NCBI GenBank assembly: GCA_963826115.1
Contig: CAWGVS010000011.1
Coordinates: forward strand, 32,001-96,000
From: an uncultured Candidatus Rokubacteria bacterium
Lineage (GTDB): Bacteria; Methylomirabilota; Methylomirabilia; Rokubacteriales; DASRDR01
DNA: 64,000 bases
Reading direction: 5' to 3'
A program made the translations under genes and the position numbers. The notes below the pieces were generated by a model. It had not been told where the DNA came from and searched no databases. It saw only the letters and a list, made by a program, of their open reading frames with translations. Shown here piece by piece: positions 466-6,493 of this stretch (position 1 is its first letter; each line of letters opens with the position of its first letter).

Positions 466-1254
466 CTAGGGCCCCTCCAGCACCATGCGCCGGTAGGACT
501 CGGCCGCCTCCAGTCCCGCGCGGAGCCCCTGCTCCCGCGCCCACTCCACCAGGAAGTCCTTGGGGTCCCACTCGCCCATCTGGCTCCGGTGCTCGCGGAG
601 GGCGGCGAGCTTCTGGTCCATCGTGCCGGCGATGTCCACGTACGTGTCGGACCGGTCGGCGCCGTGGATGTAGACCTGGCGCACCTCGTGAGGCTCGAGC
701 CCCTCGGCGAGGAGCTCCGGGAAGATGAGACGGGTGCCCGCGGACGGGAAGACGGCGTCGAGGGCGGCGTCGGCGGCCGCCCGGTGGTCGGGATGGTTCA
801 GGTACGTCGAGCCGTAGTACCGCACGGTCGGATCGCCGCAGACGACGGCGTCGGGCCGGAAGCGCCGGATCAGCCGGGTCAGGTCCCGGCGGAGGGCGAT
901 GGTGGCCTCGAGCATGCCGTCCTCGTAGTCGAGGAACCACGCGTCGGAGATCCCGAGTACCCGGCAGGCGCTTCGCTGCTCCGCCTCGCGGATCGGGCCC
1001 AGGGCGGCGCGGGTCATGTCGGGCGGCGTGAACTTGTTCGACCCACCGGTGCCGCGCGTGATGCAGACGGTCACCACGGTCGAGCCCACCCGCGCCCACT
1101 TGGCGAGCGTGCCGCCCACGGTGAACTCCTGGTCGTCGGGGTGGGCGTGGATGCTCATCACCCGGGCCGGCGGCTCGGGCTCCACGACGGCCCGCTTCTG
1201 CTTGCCGTGCTCGGGAACGCCGGGGGCGTCGGGGTCGGTCGCTCCGTCGGTCAT
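466..1254 (-). CDS. PIG-L/LmbE family deacetylase (MshB/BshB-like)
   Basis: HAHPDD and NHPDH motifs, plus IREAEQRSAC. Confidence 0.9.
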   Translation of the reverse strand: MTDGATDPDAPGVPEHGKQKRAVVEPEPPARVMSIHAHPDDQEFTVGGTLAKWARVGSTVVTVCITRGTGGSNKFTPPDMTRAALGPIREAEQRSACRVLGISDAWFLDYEDGMLEATIALRRDLTRLIRRFRPDAVVCGDPTVRYYGSTYLNHPDHRAAADAALDAVFPSAGTRLIFPELLAEGLEPHEVRQVYIHGADRSDTYVDIAGTMDQKLAALREHRSQMGEWDPKDFLVEWAREQGLRAGLEAAESYRRMVLEGP

Positions 1255-1715
1255 GTGCGGTCGGCAGTCCTTTCACTCTCGCGGATGGGGAAGTGTCGCG
1301 TGCCGAGGACCAGGGTGGGCCGGCCGCCCTCGTCCCGGAGGTGCGGGCCGAGCTGCTGGAGCGCCAGCCGGCCGAACCGCGCCGGGAAGGCGCCGCGGCG
1401 GACGCGACAGTAGAGCAGGCCGCGCTCGCTCCCGAGCGTGTCGGGGTCGAGCGGCTCCCGGTGGTCGCCGGCCAGCACGAGCTCCAGGCCGTCGAGCGCC
1501 CCCTCGCGGAGCACGGGGCGCACGCGCTGGATCACGAAGGGCGTCTCCTCGGGCTCGAACCAGTTCTGCTCGCCCTGGCACACCGCGAGCCAGCGCCCCT
1601 CCGGCGTGCGGGTCATGGCCAGGAGGAAGAAGCGGAGGGTCAGGGGATCGACGACCTCGCTGCCGTCGTGGAAGACCCGGCCCTCGGCGTCGACCCGGTA
1701 GCGATACTCGCGCAT
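1251..1715 (-). CDS. Conserved hypothetical protein (DUF1285-like)
   Basis: VDAEGRVFHDG...EETPF...LYCRVRRGAFPARFGR resembles DUF1285; overlaps the downstream gene by 4 nt. Confidence 0.6.
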   Translation of the reverse strand: MREYRYRVDAEGRVFHDGSEVVDPLTLRFFLLAMTRTPEGRWLAVCQGEQNWFEPEETPFVIQRVRPVLREGALDGLELVLAGDHREPLDPDTLGSERGLLYCRVRRGAFPARFGRLALQQLGPHLRDEGGRPTLVLGTRHFPIRESERTADRT

Positions 1716-1749
1716 GTCGTCCTCATTCTACCCGTCCTCCGGGAGCCGC

Positions 1750-2292
1750 TCAGAGCCACCGTCGGACGGCGGCCCGGTACCCGCCGTACCGGTCGCCGAA
1801 CTTCTCCGCGAGGTAGTGCTCCTCCGGCGCGATCACGCCGATCCTCAGCACGCCGACGTAGACCACCAGCAGGGCGCCGAGCCAGCCGCTGTTCGCGAGG
1901 ACGGCGATGCCCGCGAAAAGCAGCGCGAGGGCGACGTACATCGGGTTCCGGGACCAGGCGTAGATCCCGTCGGTGACGAGAGCCGTTGCCGGCTTCGGCG
2001 TCTCGACGTTCGTTCCCGACCGCCGGAAGGCCCGGAGCGCCAGCGTCATGATGATGAGGCCGAGACCCACGAGCCCCCCGCCCATCCCGTAGCGAACCGC
2101 GCCGGGCCAGCCGGCCGGGAGCAGAGGAAACGGCCAGAGCCATCCGAGGGCCGCTCCAATTGCCAGCAAGAGGTACGCGATCCGCGGAGGCCGCGCGATG
2201 ACGCCGGGCCGATCCGCGCCCGCGGCGGCCGCCCGGTCGAGGCAGCGGTGTCGCGCGTTGAAGCCGCCGTGACGGGCCGTGTGCACGATCAT
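1750..2292 (-). CDS. Isoprenylcysteine carboxyl methyltransferase/PEMT-family membrane protein
   Basis: LVTDGIYAWSRNPMY and PEEHYLAEKFGDRY...VRRWL motifs; GGAG RBS before ATG 2292. Confidence 0.85.
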   Translation of the reverse strand: MIVHTARHGGFNARHRCLDRAAAAGADRPGVIARPPRIAYLLLAIGAALGWLWPFPLLPAGWPGAVRYGMGGGLVGLGLIIMTLALRAFRRSGTNVETPKPATALVTDGIYAWSRNPMYVALALLFAGIAVLANSGWLGALLVVYVGVLRIGVIAPEEHYLAEKFGDRYGGYRAAVRRWL

Positions 2293-2293
2293 G

Positions 2294-2509
2294 TCAGGCT
2301 CCTTCCTGGAGACGCTCGATGCGGTGACGGAACGGGAGTCCGAGGAGCCAGCCGAGGGACGAGGCCCGACGATCCTGGCATTCCTCGCGCCGGGGGGCGA
2401 GGGTCTCGATCGCCCCGAGGCCGGCCAGGAGGCCGAAGTAGACCACGTATTGCAGCGTCTCCCCATGCTCCGCCAGGATGCCTTCGGGCGACATGCGCCT
2501 GTCCTCCAT
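2294..2509 (-). CDS. Small hydrophobic ORF, possibly a truncated sterol-desaturase-like N-terminus
   Basis: 71-aa ORF with one hydrophobic stretch followed by ETLAPRR; lies downstream of the minus-strand ECF promoter. Confidence 0.35.
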   Translation of the reverse strand: MEDRRMSPEGILAEHGETLQYVVYFGLLAGLGAIETLAPRREECQDRRASSLGWLLGLPFRHRIERLQEGA

Positions 2510-2585
2510 CGGACGCCCCGGCCGGCCCCACGTCCGGGCGGCCGGCGCGCCCTCTCGTCCGGTTGATCGATCCTTCGAGGAGTCA

Positions 2586-2611
2586 TACGGCCGACGGGGG
2601 GCGGCGGTTAC
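2586..2611 (-). promoter_or_regulatory. ECF sigma promoter GTAAC-N17-CGTA (leftward)
   Basis: + strand TACG at 2586-2589 and GTTAC at 2607-2611, 17-nt spacer; same architecture as the rightward copy. Confidence 0.7.
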
Positions 2612-2658: not shown

Positions 2659-2684
2659 GTAACTTCGAGACGGGCTCGTCCGTA
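2659..2684 (+). promoter_or_regulatory. ECF sigma autoregulatory promoter GTAAC-N17-CGTA (rightward)
   Basis: GTAAC 2659-2663, CGTA 2681-2684, then GGAGG RBS and the ECF ATG at 2702. Confidence 0.75.
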
Positions 2685-2701
2685 GAACCGTTTGGAGGGG
2701 C

Positions 2702-3274
2702 ATGAACACGATGGCGGTGGCCGAGGCGGTGGCGCGGGCTCGCCAGGGAGACCGGGAAGGCCTTGCCGACCTCTACGAGGCGTTCGGCCGGCGTGTCCTC
2801 GGTCTCTGCCGTCACCTCCTCGGGTCCCCGGAAGCGGCGGAGGATGCCCGGAGCGACGTCTTCCTCCGCCTGCCTCGAGCGATCGAGCTTTACGATCCCG
2901 CGCTGCCGTTCGACCGCTGGCTCCTGAGCGTCACCGGTCACCACTGCCTCGACGTCCTGCGACGCCGCCGGCTCGAGTCGCGCCTGTTCGCGACCGAGCT
3001 GCTCGAGGAGGACGGTGCGTCCGTGGCAGACCAGCCGGGGTCTTCCCCGCTCGCGGTCGTGATGACCGACCAGGGTCGGGTGCGGGTGCGGGACGCGCTC
3101 CTCCGCCTGCCCGAGCGCTACCGGGTGGCGCTCGCGCTCCGCTACTACGGCGAGCTGGGCTACGAGGAGATCGCGGCCCAGCTCGGGGTGACGCGCAACC
3201 ACGTGGCGATCCTGATCTTCCGCGGCAAGCAGGCGCTTCGCCGACTGCTGGCGGATCTCGACGAGAGGGCGTGA
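2702..3274 (+). CDS. ECF RNA polymerase sigma-70 factor (SigW/RpoE-like)
   Basis: Region 2 (AEDARSDVFL...FDRWL) and region 4 (LPERYRVALALRYYGELGYEEIA). Confidence 0.92.
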   Translation: MNTMAVAEAVARARQGDREGLADLYEAFGRRVLGLCRHLLGSPEAAEDARSDVFLRLPRAIELYDPALPFDRWLLSVTGHHCLDVLRRRRLESRLFATELLEEDGASVADQPGSSPLAVVMTDQGRVRVRDALLRLPERYRVALALRYYGELGYEEIAAQLGVTRNHVAILIFRGKQALRRLLADLDERA

Positions 3275-3276
3275 CG

Positions 3277-4893
3277 ATGACCTGCCTGAGCGAGCTCACG
3301 TGTTCGGTGTACGTCGACGGGGAGCTCTCCCCGGAGGAGACCCCGGCCGCCGAGGCGCATCTTGCGACCTGCGAGCGCTGCCGGTCGCTGGTCGCGGCGC
3401 TCCGGGATGAGATCCGAGTGGTCAGCGCGGCGCTCGCCGAGACGGCAGAGCCGGCGCCGTCGCCCGCTCCCGTCAGGGGGGCTGTCCTGGCCCCCGCTGC
3501 GGGGCGCGTCGCGACGAACGGCCGACGGACGTGGGGTCTGGCGGCGATCGTGGCGGCCCTGGCGGGGGCGGGGATCCTGGCCGTCCTCGCAGGGATCGCG
3601 ACGGTCGGCGACTGGACCGGCGCGGCCGTGGGCGCGGCGGTCTTCGTCGTGCTGAACGCCGAGACGCTGTGGGGCGCCCTCGCGACGCTGGCGCTCGCCA
3701 CGATGGCGGCGCTGACGCTGGCCGGCGCGGTCTATCTCGGGCGCCCCGCCTCGCGTGCGCTCGCGGGGCTCGCGCTGACGCTCGGGGTCGCGGCGGCGAT
3801 CGCCCCGTCGTCGGCCGAGGCGCTCGAGGCGCGGAGAGGCGTGGAAGTGTCGGTGGACGCCGGCGAGACCGTGGACGGGACCCTGACGGCCGCCGCCGAG
3901 CACGTCCGCGTGGACGGCAACGTCCGCGGGGACCTGATCGTCGCGGCGGCGCGCGTGGAGGTCCGGGGGACCGTGGGCGGCGATCTCGTGGTCGCGGGCC
4001 GCACCGTGGAGGTGACCGGCACGGTGGAGGGCAGCGTCTACGTCGCCGCCAGATCGTTCACGCTGCGCGGACGCGTGGGCCGGGGGCTCTATGCGGCGGA
4101 TCGCGAGACGCGCATCGAGCCGGGCGCGCAGATCGGGGGGGACCTCGCGATGGCGGGGCGGAGCCTGTTCCTCGGCGGCGAGGTGGCGCGGGGGGCGAGC
4201 ATGTTCGTGCGGGACGCGGAGGTGACCGGCCGCGTCCGGCGGGACCTCCGGTTCCGGGGTCACCGCCTCGTGGTGCGGGCGCCGGCGCGGCTCGAGGGCA
4301 TCGTGCGGGCCGACGTCGCGCGGGCCTCGGACGTCTCGGTCGACGCCGGCGCCGCCGTGACGGGGCCTGTGCTGACGCGCGTCGGGTCCCGGGTCGCCCA
4401 CTGGTTTGGCGAGCCCCGCGTCTGGTTCTGGGTGGCGACGAGCTTCTTCGGCGCGGCGCTCCTCGGCTGGGTGGCCCTGCTGGTCGTCCCGGGTCTAGTG
4501 GCGGGCAGCGCCGAGGACGTGGGGCGCTGGGGGCGATCCCTGGGATGGGGCGTTGCGTTTCTCGTCGGAGGCCCGGTCGCGATCGTGCTCCTCGCCGTGA
4601 CCCTGGTCGGCCTGCCGCTCGCCCTCGTCCTGCTGGGCCTCTACCTGCTCAGTCTCTACGCGGCGAAGATCGTCGTGGGCCTGGCGATCGGGCGCGCGCT
4701 CCTGAAGCCGCGGGGTCACCCCCGACGCGACGCGCTACGGGCGCTGGTGGTCGGGCTGGTGCTCGTCACCGTGGCCACGGCGCTGCCCTTCGTCGGCGGG
4801 GCGATCTGGGCGGCGATCGCGTGCCTCGGCGCCGGCGCGCTTGCGGCGCGGATCGCCCGCACGGCCCTCGGCGTGCGAAGCTCGGAGGCGTGA
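3277..4893 (+). CDS. Anti-sigma factor: zf-HC2 domain, TM segments, bactofilin-like beta-helix repeats and multi-TM C-terminus
   Basis: YVDGEL...HLATCERC ZAS motif; repeated V.G.V.GDL.V units; hydrophobic C-terminus. Confidence 0.85.
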   Translation: MTCLSELTCSVYVDGELSPEETPAAEAHLATCERCRSLVAALRDEIRVVSAALAETAEPAPSPAPVRGAVLAPAAGRVATNGRRTWGLAAIVAALAGAGILAVLAGIATVGDWTGAAVGAAVFVVLNAETLWGALATLALATMAALTLAGAVYLGRPASRALAGLALTLGVAAAIAPSSAEALEARRGVEVSVDAGETVDGTLTAAAEHVRVDGNVRGDLIVAAARVEVRGTVGGDLVVAGRTVEVTGTVEGSVYVAARSFTLRGRVGRGLYAADRETRIEPGAQIGGDLAMAGRSLFLGGEVARGASMFVRDAEVTGRVRRDLRFRGHRLVVRAPARLEGIVRADVARASDVSVDAGAAVTGPVLTRVGSRVAHWFGEPRVWFWVATSFFGAALLGWVALLVVPGLVAGSAEDVGRWGRSLGWGVAFLVGGPVAIVLLAVTLVGLPLALVLLGLYLLSLYAAKIVVGLAIGRALLKPRGHPRRDALRALVVGLVLVTVATALPFVGGAIWAAIACLGAGALAARIARTALGVRSSEA

Positions 4894-5564
4894 GCGTCGA
4901 GATCCGGACCGCCGCCGAGATCCTCACCCCCGAGCGAGCCGGGGCGTGGGAGGCCCGGCGGGCGCAGCGGGACGATCCGGTGCTCCGCGCCATCTGGCGC
5001 GCGTTCGTCGACACCGGCGGGCCGGTGACGCTCGACGGGGTGTCGCGGGCTCTCCGCGAGCTCACCGTCGACACGCTCCGCGAGCGGGCGTCCGCGCTGG
5101 ACGGCGCGGACCTGATCGGGTTCGAGGGAGAGCGGGTCGTTCTCGCGTACCCGTTCACGGCGGAGCCGAACGACTTCGAGGTGGTCCTGCCGGGCCGGCG
5201 GCACCGCTACGCGTGCTGCGCGATCGACGCGCTCGGCGTGGCGCCGATGCTGGGCGTGGGGGTGACGGTCCGCTCGCGCTGTCACCGGAGCGGCGACGCG
5301 CTGGTTCTCGACGTGGACCCGGAGGCCGGGCCTCTCGGGGCGCCGGCCGGCGTCGTCGCGTGGGTCGAGCGAGGCCGCTGGGGCGGCGACCGCCTCTCCG
5401 GCTTTCTCTGAACGCGCCTCAACTTCTTCCGGTCGGAGGAAGCGCTCGAGGCATGGCGCCGTGACACACCCGACGGGGACGGCGCTGCCCTCGTGCTCGC
5501 CGAGGCGTTCACGCTCGCGCGCCGGCTGTTCGGAGGGCTGCTCCTCCCGGCGGCCGCGCACTGA
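4890..5564 (+). CDS. MerB-like organomercurial lyase family selenoprotein (Sec at TGA 5409-5411)
   Basis: AYPFT, YACCAIDALG and VRSRCHRSG match MerB; readthrough gives FL-U-TRLNFFRSEEALEAW, aligning by eye with MerB FCCHVHFF; GTG start overlaps the anti-sigma stop; SECIS-like hairpin follows. Confidence 0.85.
5423..5442 (+). promoter_or_regulatory. Putative SECIS element (merB-like)
   Basis: CTTCTTCC-GGTC-GGAGGAAG hairpin starting 11 nt after the TGA. Confidence 0.8.
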
Positions 5565-5644
5565 CGGTCGGCGCCCGCGAGCGGGCCGGCGCGAGCCCGG
5601 CGTGTCATAATCGACGCGAGCGGTTCTCTCGGAAGGAGCGACTC

Positions 5645-6493
5645 GTGACGGACGGAACCTTCGGCTCGGTCGTCAGCACGGCGTGGCTCGGCGATCGACT
5701 GGGCGACCCCGCGCTGCGGATCCTCGACGCGACGTGGTACCTGCCGCACCTCCAGCGCGACGCGCGCGCGGAGTACCGCCAGGCGCACATCCCCGGCGCC
5801 CAGTACTTCGACATCGACGCGATCGCCGACCGCCGCCAGGGGCTGCCGCACATGCTGCCCGACGCGGCCACCTTCGCCGAGGCGGTCGGCGCCCTCGGGA
5901 TCGGCGCCGGCGACCACGTCGTGGCGTACGGGGGCAAGAACCTCGTGGCCTCCGCGCGCGTCTGGTGGACCTTCCGCGCGTTCGGGCACGACCGGGTGGT
6001 CGTGCTGGACGGGGGATTCCCGAAGTGGCGGGACGAGGGACGGCCGATCGAGGCCGGCGAGCCGACGACGACGGCGCGCCGGTTCACCGCCCGCTTCCAT
6101 CCGGAGTTGGTGACCGATCTCGCGGCCGTGCGGCGGAACGTCGAGACGCGGGTGACCCAGGTCGTCGACGCGCGCTCGGCGGGACGGTTCGCCGGCACGG
6201 AGCCCGAGCCCCGCGCCGGCCTCCGGGGCGGCCACATTCCGGGGAGCCTCAGCCTGCCGTACGACCGGCTCTTCGGGCCCGACGGCATGCTGCGCTCGCC
6301 GGACGACCTCCGCCGCGTCTTCGAGGGTGCCGGCGTCGCGCTCGACCGGCGGATCGCGACGACGTGCGGGTCGGGGGTGACGGCGTGCGTCCTCGCCCTG
6401 GGCCTCGATCGGGTCGGCCGTCCGGACGTCGCGGTCTACGACGGATCCTGGACCGAGTGGGGCGGCCGGGACGACGTGCCCGTGGAGCGGTAG
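5645..6493 (+). CDS. sseA: 3-mercaptopyruvate sulfurtransferase (tandem rhodanese)
   Basis: HIPGA, CGSGVTAC active-site loop and YDGSWTEWG. Confidence 0.92.
   Translation: MTDGTFGSVVSTAWLGDRLGDPALRILDATWYLPHLQRDARAEYRQAHIPGAQYFDIDAIADRRQGLPHMLPDAATFAEAVGALGIGAGDHVVAYGGKNLVASARVWWTFRAFGHDRVVVLDGGFPKWRDEGRPIEAGEPTTTARRFTARFHPELVTDLAAVRRNVETRVTQVVDARSAGRFAGTEPEPRAGLRGGHIPGSLSLPYDRLFGPDGMLRSPDDLRRVFEGAGVALDRRIATTCGSGVTACVLALGLDRVGRPDVAVYDGSWTEWGGRDDVPVER

Follow-up and report, generated by a model that had tools for sequence, protein, structure and literature searches.

A selenocysteine-containing MerB-fold protein encoded in a predicted extracytoplasmic function sigma factor operon of Candidatus Rokubacteria

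What is a gene for a MerB-like protein doing directly behind an extracytoplasmic function (ECF) sigma factor gene and its anti-sigma factor gene, with an in-frame UGA in its coding region and, as an initial annotation had already remarked, no mer operon nearby? The question is raised by a 64,000-nucleotide stretch of DNA from an uncultured Candidatus Rokubacteria bacterium (GenBank assembly GCA_963826115.1, contig CAWGVS010000011.1, positions 32,001 to 96,000 of the forward strand), which was analysed as a whole and is referred to below as the window. It is likely that the gene encodes a selenocysteine (Sec)-containing lyase of the MerB fold which acts on soft organometals, and that it forms the last cistron of an autoregulated ECF operon. 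The gene coordinates, the overlap of the GTG start with the preceding stop, the in-frame TGA and the 224-residue frame given by the initial annotation were all found again at the same positions (Table 1), and the argument set out here proceeds from the decoding of the UGA, through the identity of the protein and its control, to the chemistry that it may perform.

The decoding of the UGA can be judged from the protein that lies beyond it. The Pfam MerB model (PF03243, gathering score 27) matches residues 89-215 on profile positions 1-126 of 126, across the UGA, and because the model is aligned over its full length the part after the UGA corresponds to the C-terminus of MerB, which answers a check that had been proposed from the outset. 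When 201 genomes belonging to the phylum were searched in six frames, 122 gave a match (these tallies take in four unpublished genomes, G101, G151, G058 and G029, of which the other claims made here are independent), and among the matches listed that span residue 174 nearly all contain exactly one TGA and are aligned to approximately residues 218-223, a minority containing none. Base-by-base reading of 21 loci placed the TGA in the same column in every case, followed by U-T-x-L-N-F-F-R-S-E-E and by a conserved A-F-x-L-G-x-R-x-F-G-G-L-L tail; in a larger set of 62 loci the residue-174 column holds TGA in 52 and Cys in 10. An alignment of 43 sequences, a subset of the 62 loci from which partial, frameshifted and some redundant rows were omitted, has C110, C131 and U/C174 invariant and D113 conserved in at least 90%, while after the UGA residues F180, W189, G198 and F214 are invariant and the frame remains open, with conservation at the protein level down to 38-45% identity. 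Eight full-length gene-called relatives, drawn from a search of 1.84 billion cluster representatives (985 matches at E up to 1e-3, 228 at 1e-10), were also aligned, and six of them carry Cys at the residue-174 column.

Public gene calls stop at the UGA: each of the 120 matches listed, out of 359, covers at most 77% of the query, the majority being 170-175 residues long. Homologues ending at this codon, which the initial annotation had regarded as fatal to its proposal, occur only in such gene-caller output, as the DNA frames run on with conserved sequence; judged by these frames, the public gene ends are an annotation artefact and no evidence of termination. Two further explanations of the codon were rejected. 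TGA ends both the sigma and the anti-sigma gene and is therefore not reassigned genome-wide, and a sequencing error is ruled out by the presence of the same codon in 52 of the 62 loci.

The genome contains the complete set of selA, selB, selC and selD. The tRNA-Sec gene (76.9 bits, anticodon TCA), SelA (503.7 bits) and SelB (75.6 bits) are clustered on one contig, and SelD is present as well (393.2 bits); a tRNA scan of the window itself returned none, the tRNA-Sec gene lying on another contig. The selD match (G000:C5:561687-562604, plus strand; L102) has one in-frame TGA, because of which the selenophosphate synthetase is probably a selenoprotein itself. Downstream of the UGA in the window, the 11-nt spacer and the GGUC-loop hairpin (CUUCUUCC-GGUC-GGAGGAAG, with G in the apical loop) are present just as first described, and we take this hairpin to resemble fdhF's Sec insertion sequence (SECIS) element. 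An Rfam scan of positions 4800-5700 with E up to 10 gave no match to a SECIS family and only a chance hit to a microRNA. As a control, distinct sequences matching the motif pattern around the site were compared, non-matching loci being dropped. Among 72 distinct Sec forms the codons of the hairpin are nearly fixed: all 72 write Arg as CGG, 70 have the Ser codon TCG and 66 the Glu codon GAA. The hairpin energy has a median of -7.8 kcal/mol (range -12.8 to -7.2), whereas in the Cys forms (n = 10) both residues and codons vary there and the median is -3.15 kcal/mol (range 0 to -5.9). Synonymous codon choice, on this comparison, keeps the hairpin in Sec forms only, and Sec insertion at the UGA is very likely in the light of the conserved frame, the hairpin and the encoded machinery.

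The protein so read has the predicted fold of MerB. An AlphaFold2 model built from the 43-sequence alignment reaches a mean predicted local distance difference test score (pLDDT) of 89.8 and a predicted template modelling score of 0.88. When it was compared with the PDB by Foldseek, the top 11 matches were all MerB or MerB2 (template modelling scores 0.55-0.77, E 3e-11 to 9e-9) and everything below them had E >0.05. The CxxD motif (CCAID) noticed at first sight is intact: it lies within the motif YACCAIDAL, which holds C110 and D113, and alignment to the MerB of plasmid R831b (E = 1.8e-8) equates these residues with Cys96 and Asp99. The second catalytic cysteine of MerB is absent as such, its position being held by Sec174, which is chemically analogous. 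HMMER pairs Sec174 with Cys160 by way of one gap and a gapless alignment on the conserved FF pairs it with Cys159; the earlier placing of the UGA at the Cys159 position of MerB thus holds to within one residue, while the exact pairing, with Cys159 or Cys160, varies with the alignment. By alignment and predicted structure together, positions 4890-5564 of the window are an intact MerB-fold selenoprotein gene.

Compared with MerB itself (plasmid R831b; PDB 1s6l and 3f0p), the window protein shares the fold and is matched by the Pfam model from end to end, at approximately 22-24% identity in the Foldseek alignments. Cys96, Asp99 and Cys117 of MerB are retained as C110, D113 and C131, whereas the second metal ligand is Sec, a single residue in place of a Cys-Cys pair. 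MerB operons also differ in their control, an ECF operon standing here instead of MerR, and merA, merT, merP and merR are all without a match above threshold in the genome.

That MerB-related selenoproteins exist in print, as had been stated in the first description of the locus, proved correct. SaoL, the "selenocysteine-assisted organometallic lyase" (NF040728), is a MerB-like selenoprotein with a Cys-Sec dipeptide, encoded in a nine-gene locus of anaerobes and, in the available text of the preprint, reported only from anaerobes, mostly Firmicutes (Haft and Gwadz, bioRxiv 10.1101/2022.07.06.499078); it is also the only MerB-like selenoprotein in the accessible portions of two reviews (PMC9312934, PMC13188914). 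The two proteins are alike in being MerB-fold selenoproteins with Sec at the second metal-ligand position, approximately 50 residues from the C-terminus, and both are truncated at the UGA in databases. They are nonetheless distinct. With the SaoL model the protein reaches 42.1 bits, far below the cut-off of 140, and is matched over residues 33-143 alone; the window protein has F-L-U-T where SaoL has C-U (the family pattern being L-U or x-L-U-T), and no Cys precedes U among the Sec forms listed. The hosts differ too, those of the window family being high-GC Rokubacteria of soil and groundwater. The nine-gene SAO neighbourhood (ABC transporter, SaoC, SaoT) is not at the locus, although the Sao models were not searched one by one, and the actual neighbours of the lyase are genes for the sigma and anti-sigma factors, a rhodanese, an E1 dehydrogenase, a PEMT-like protein and a PIG-L protein. 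An ECF-operon MerB-like gene, or this clade, was not found in the searchable full-text literature, outside which lie most subscription journals and supplements. Relative to what is in print, the protein is a second, distinct Sec-containing branch of MerB with unreported regulatory wiring. A further, more distant family of MerB-like selenoproteins, approximately 25-27% identical, was seen at three loci (L189, L190 and L191; G191:C9, G137:C3 and G143:C15), with C-G-F-E in place of C-x-x-D, an L-U-T-G-M-N-L-F-R-S-E motif and a C-terminus of greater length; this family occurs commonly in the order and was not found in the window's genome.

Control by the ECF system is suggested by the construction of the operon. 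The sigma factor consists of regions 2 and 4 only and the adjacent anti-sigma factor carries an H-x3-C-x2-C zinc site, so that the two form an ECF sigma/zinc-binding anti-sigma (ZAS) pair. Their genes are two bases apart, and the GTG of the lyase gene overlaps the anti-sigma stop as GTGA, an overlap present in 6/7 intact loci, with the junction sequence conserved in nine of the ten loci of the genus. According to a hydropathy scan and Pfam, the anti-sigma factor is composed of an N-terminal ZAS finger, approximately four hydrophobic segments, a bactofilin-like beta-helix (194-289) and four to five further hydrophobic segments; the finger reads C3-x24-H28-x3-C32-x2-C35, and all four ligands are invariant in 7/7 orthologues. 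Upstream of the sigma gene the predicted promoter boxes GTAACT-N16-CGTAG are invariant, with a variable spacer sequence, in all seven sigma-bearing loci, and a twin of the pattern lies on the opposite strand approximately 30-60 nt away in six of them. ECF promoters typically have AAC in their -35 box and CGT in their -10 box. Across the 6.2-Mb genome GTAAC-N16-18-CGTA[GT] occurs seven times, and all four occurrences with N17 fall at the two sigma loci; neither the three sigma-less loci of the genus nor 52 loci belonging to other genera contain the pattern. Together with the gene order, these motif counts give ECF control in this genus good in silico support.

PIG-L, the 154-aa open reading frame (ORF) and the PEMT-like gene occupy one strand of the module, and the opposite strand carries sigma, anti-sigma, Sec-lyase, rhodanese and E1 dehydrogenase; the two copies in the window's genome and five other loci of the genus show this full order. 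In a synteny survey, the window's genus alone had the order ECF sigma, ZAS anti-sigma, lyase and sulfurtransferase. Named records gave 80 loci, with the sigma pair in 8 and deleted forms in 3, and each of these 11, some of them places already counted above, shares at least 64% identity with the window's protein. The ECF wiring is of recent origin. The initial description of an ECF-controlled Sec lyase module therefore stands in so far as the lyase is the third cistron of an ECF sigma/ZAS operon with a predicted promoter and has a Sec-containing MerB fold; it is narrowed by the confinement of the arrangement to one genus and by its decay in three of ten loci. The sulfurtransferase gene that had been noted behind the lyase is there, a two-domain rhodanese scoring above the NF008557 cut-off; it begins 80 nt downstream of the lyase gene, follows it in all ten loci of the genus, and no terminator-like site was found between the two genes by a terminator scan. 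The second copy of the module (lyase at G000:C5:2103123-2103791, minus strand, covered partly in L013 with approximately 5 kb on either side) encodes a lyase of 74% protein identity with one TGA, and its rhodanese match is in two pieces, which indicates a frameshift or an assembly error. At another locus, L036 (G175:C5), the lyase frame runs without a stop into the rhodanese start, giving 527 open codons, and the anti-sigma match is in three pieces; the locus has either assembly frameshift errors or a decaying copy.

Two kinds of system offer a comparison for the regulatory part. With SigR-RsrA and other ZAS systems, which deal with thiol-reactive stress, the window shares a sigma gene followed by an anti-sigma gene, an N-terminal zf-HC2 with Cys as first ligand and a merely predicted autoregulatory promoter, whereas the anti-sigma factor of the window is large, polytopic and membrane-bound and includes a bactofilin-like region. 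Caulobacter sigmaF-NrsF is, in the available text on it, an ECF system induced by chromium and cadmium, with a membrane-bound anti-sigma factor, functionally important cysteines and a small regulon that includes sulfur-metabolism genes (PMC3511200). Its promoter, GTAACC-N16-CGAA, has a -35 box resembling the GTAAC found here and differs in the -10 box (CGAA against CGTA); NrsF has six helices and lacks a ZAS domain, and that text reports no MerB-like gene in the sigmaF regulon (PMC3511200).

Table 1. Positions and supporting matches of the features discussed, numbered from the first letter of the window.
Feature	Position	Strand	Support
ECF sigma factor gene, 190 aa	2702-3274	+	Sigma70_r2 51.6 bits, Sigma70_r4_2 54.4 bits; TIGR02937 91.4 bits (cut-off 42.9)
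Membrane anti-sigma factor gene, 538 aa	ATG 3277 to TGA 4891-4893	+	zf-HC2 33.7 bits, Bactofilin 39.1 bits
MerB-fold selenoprotein gene, 224 aa (predicted)	GTG 4890 to TGA 5562-5564	+	C110, D113, C131, U174; PF03243 83.9 bits
UGA, very likely read as Sec174	5409-5411	+	TGA in 52/62 loci, Cys in 10/62; downstream frame conserved
Putative SECIS hairpin, 8-bp stem, GGUC loop	5423-5442	+	11 nt after UGA, within codons N-F-F-R-S-E-E; in 21/21 loci
3-Mercaptopyruvate sulfurtransferase gene, two rhodanese domains	5645-6493	+	NF008557 275.9 bits (cut-off 250)
Predicted ECF-type promoter of sigma/anti-sigma/lyase operon	2659-2685	+	GTAACT-N16-CGTAG, i.e. GTAAC-N17-CGTA
Twin promoter-like motif facing divergent operon	2585-2611	-	GTAAC-N17-CGTAT; in 6/7 sigma-bearing loci
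Divergent gene row	466-2509	-	four genes/ORFs, conserved in genus loci
71-aa ORF, remnant of fatty-acid-hydroxylase-like gene	2294-2509	-	comparison with sister loci
PEMT/ICMT-like methyltransferase gene	1750-2292 (start uncertain)	-	Pfam PEMT 56.8 bits
154-aa ORF	1251-1715	-	
PIG-L family deacetylase gene	466-1254	-	Pfam PIG-L 108.6 bits

The setting of the same enzyme elsewhere in the phylum bears on its chemistry. The lyase family is common in Rokubacteria, the related loci coming mostly from Candidatus Rokubacteria/Methylomirabilota metagenome-assembled genomes and from a few bins under other labels. Neighbour families at these loci were defined by comparing all six-frame ORFs with one another and clustering them. 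In genera other than the window's, the strand of the lyase gene often carries behind it a glutaredoxin-like gene, a LysW-like zinc ribbon, MerF (NF033565, 60.5 against a cut-off of 50), a membrane protein with weak likeness to MerT and an HMA protein that is secreted and MerP-like. The glutaredoxin-like gene has an in-frame TGA of its own (motif U-Q-S-C, that is U-x-x-C; PF00462, 61.6 bits), and the HMA protein carries G-M-T-U-G-S-U (NF041115, 109.8 against 95; MerP model TIGR02052, 75.5, below cut-off). Just downstream of the lyase in 52 loci of other genera the glutaredoxin occurs 24 times, the zinc ribbon 23, the two transporter-like genes 11 and 12 and the HMA protein 8, and at least one of these five mercury-type neighbours is present in 28/52 within the DNA fetched. 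The neighbours of the Cys-form relatives, which belong to another class of the phylum, are similar. At L053:1377-2510, L057:6650-6940 and like loci, more selenoprotein genes lie behind the lyase, of the U-x-x-C glutaredoxin-like and U-x-x-U MerP-like HMA kinds, and MerF and the LysW-like zinc-ribbon protein occur there too. Judged by these usual neighbours, the family belongs to Sec-rich clusters for metal handling.

A quickly built maximum-likelihood tree with 55 rows (the other 7 of the 62 loci being left out as partial or frameshifted), with the root chosen on the Cys forms, places the window's genus as one clade of seven rows (SH-aLRT 100) among the Sec forms. With this chosen root, on which the order of events depends, the mercury-type setting looks older than the ECF setting. 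The occurrence of the same Sec enzyme in mercury-type clusters elsewhere, to judge from these neighbourhoods, points towards and not away from mercury or organomercury chemistry.

On this basis a mechanism can be proposed. The UGA would be decoded by SelB and tRNA-Sec, directed by the coding-region hairpin 11 nt downstream. In the product, C110 would act as the catalytic Cys and D113 as the proton-donor Asp, with C131 as structural Cys and U174 at the second metal-ligating position; a soft organometal would be held between thiolate and selenolate, and the carbon-metal bond would be cut by protonolysis, by analogy with MerB. Of the mechanisms considered, carbon-metal lyase chemistry of the MerB type, performed by a thiolate-selenolate pair, has the best support, and the fold, the retained residues and the neighbours of the family elsewhere make organomercurials the likeliest substrates. 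The operon would be transcribed from the GTAAC-N17-CGTAG promoter and autoregulated by its sigma factor, the twin motif driving the divergent row of lipid-modifying and PIG-L genes; since the lyase gene is the last cistron of the sigma/anti-sigma operon, the enzyme is predicted to be made when the anti-sigma factor releases sigma. The older setting of the family would have been a Sec-rich mercury-handling cluster, from which this genus may have detached the gene, separating it from mercury transport and setting it beside 3-mercaptopyruvate sulfurtransferase.

The genomic background was examined by a search for mercury genes in the whole 6.2-Mb genome at the curated cut-offs of the models. The initial finding that merA, merR and merT are missing extends at these cut-offs from the window to the entire genome: the best MerA match (TIGR02053) reaches 388.6 bits against 454 and lies outside the window, the best MerR match (TIGR02051) reaches 43.8 against 150.85, and MerT (PF02411) has 0 matches. 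HMA domains (PF00403) also have 0 matches in this genome, rated 99% complete, while 13 of 14 control genomes have one. A tblastn search of the genome with the five mercury-type neighbour proteins found only a Cys-type glutaredoxin at an unrelated place, and none of these neighbours is at any of the ten loci of the genus. The UxxU metal-binding selenoprotein (NF041115) and the glutaredoxin-like selenoproteins, usual neighbours of the lyase in other Rokubacteria, are absent from the window and from its genome.

Several of the results weigh against a Sec-containing organometal lyase under ECF control. As no MerA, MerT, HMA or mercury-type MerR is above threshold in the genome, Hg(II) released by cleavage of an organomercurial has no known onward route, which weakens a straightforward mercury-detoxification reading for this genus. 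Of the 52 loci of other genera, 24 have none of the five mercury-type neighbours, some of them on short contigs, and the stem of the genus clade is long (0.56 changes per column), as is compatible with a change of function. The NCBIfam MerB equivalogs are far under their cut-offs (NF009710, 61.2 against 193 bits; NF033555, 51.4 against 200), and with the low NF040728 score they place the protein in the MerB superfamily but outside both of the curated families. The sole poorly modelled stretch of the predicted structure (pLDDT <50) covers residues 164-172, a short way ahead of Sec174. The folding energy of the hairpin is unexceptional against shuffles (z = -0.03 over 81 nt and -0.80 over 42 nt), and it is judged to be more than chance because of the comparison with relatives, the energy alone not being significant. 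Finally, at three loci of the genus (L037, L038 and L039; G095, G108 and G149) the flanks and the lyase are kept while sigma and most or all of anti-sigma are gone; the conserved 25 nt before the lyase start remain, the ECF promoter motif is absent, and the lyase is intact in two and frameshifted in one. ECF control is, on the evidence of these deletions, dispensable, since 3/10 loci of the genus lack the sigma pair and two of them retain an intact lyase.

Much of this background would also suit an enzyme which keeps the selenoprotein and its operon and has lost activity on organomercurials, serving instead another soft electrophile or organometal(loid), or acting as a selenol enzyme of thiol stress in an ECF thiol/envelope regulon together with the sulfurtransferase and PIG-L. 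The genome-wide lack of a mercury transport, reduction or mercury-type regulator gene above threshold speaks for such a shift, as do the long stem branch and the loss, in the forms of this genus, of the second Cys of the CHHCG motif that is present in most other members of the 43-sequence alignment. The anti-sigma factor has a full Cys-His-Cys-Cys ZAS site, and the PIG-L family includes enzymes of low-molecular-weight-thiol pathways. Sec at the metal site may moreover alter the substrate range, as is argued in the accessible text on SaoL (Haft and Gwadz, bioRxiv 10.1101/2022.07.06.499078). Yet C110, D113 and U174 are all kept, the nearest relatives are linked to mercury, nothing points positively to any other substrate, and a gene order conserved in a single genus is a weak sign of shared function; we regard the change of substrate as unlikely, if a serious competitor. 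With no gene for mercury export or reduction above threshold in the genome, the enzyme may either still serve mercury detoxification or have shifted to another soft electrophile.

A more elaborate scheme would make the locus an undescribed, MerA-independent response to organometals or soft electrophiles, in which the ZAS anti-sigma factor senses the agent, sigma induces the Sec lyase, and the metal product passes to sulfane sulfur supplied by the sulfurtransferase, with no reduction or volatilisation. We consider it decidedly doubtful; if true, it would be the first ECF-controlled organometal lyase, in which MerR control has been replaced.

It has also to be asked whether the MerB-like protein is mainly a catalyst at all, as it could be chiefly a metal- or organometal-binding co-sensor that acts on the co-translated anti-sigma factor. 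ECF systems with third components are known, and the conserved 4-nt translational coupling of the two genes fits stoichiometric partners; a third component is also raised as a possibility for the heavy-metal-responsive Caulobacter sigmaF in the available text (PMC3511200). The proton-donor Asp needed for catalysis is nevertheless kept, the lyase is intact in two loci without sigma and anti-sigma genes, and in the rest of the phylum the family occurs without the sigma pair, all of which renders a co-sensor improbable. That the UGA is a true stop, with a 173-residue truncated MerB-like product followed by a decaying remnant, as the public gene ends among the 120 matches listed of 359 would have it, deserves almost no credence beside the conserved frame with its four invariant residues, the Cys in the same column at 10 loci, the hairpin kept by synonymous codons and the complete Sec machinery.

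Since public annotation ends the protein at residue 173, a large Sec branch of MerB has been missed in surveys of mercury genes and of selenoproteins alike. The family provides natural Sec/Cys pairs at a metal-ligating position of an enzyme whose workings are well understood, and with them a clean test of the part that selenium plays in carbon-metal cleavage. The rewiring seen in this genus would constitute a compact regulon, made up of two promoters, a sigma factor, a ZAS anti-sigma factor and a single enzyme, for studying how organometals or thiol-reactive agents are sensed and dealt with by uncultured soil bacteria.

The remaining features of the locus lie on the opposite strand. From the twin promoter motif only, we infer that the divergent row may belong to the ECF regulon. 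Its 71-aa ORF matches, with its first approximately 47 and last approximately 28 residues, both ends of a full-length fatty-acid-hydroxylase/sterol-desaturase-like gene which occupies the same place in sister loci; by this comparison it is an in-frame internal-deletion remnant. The PIG-L gene overlaps the end of the 154-aa ORF by 4 nt, and because of this overlap it is probably part of the divergent operon.

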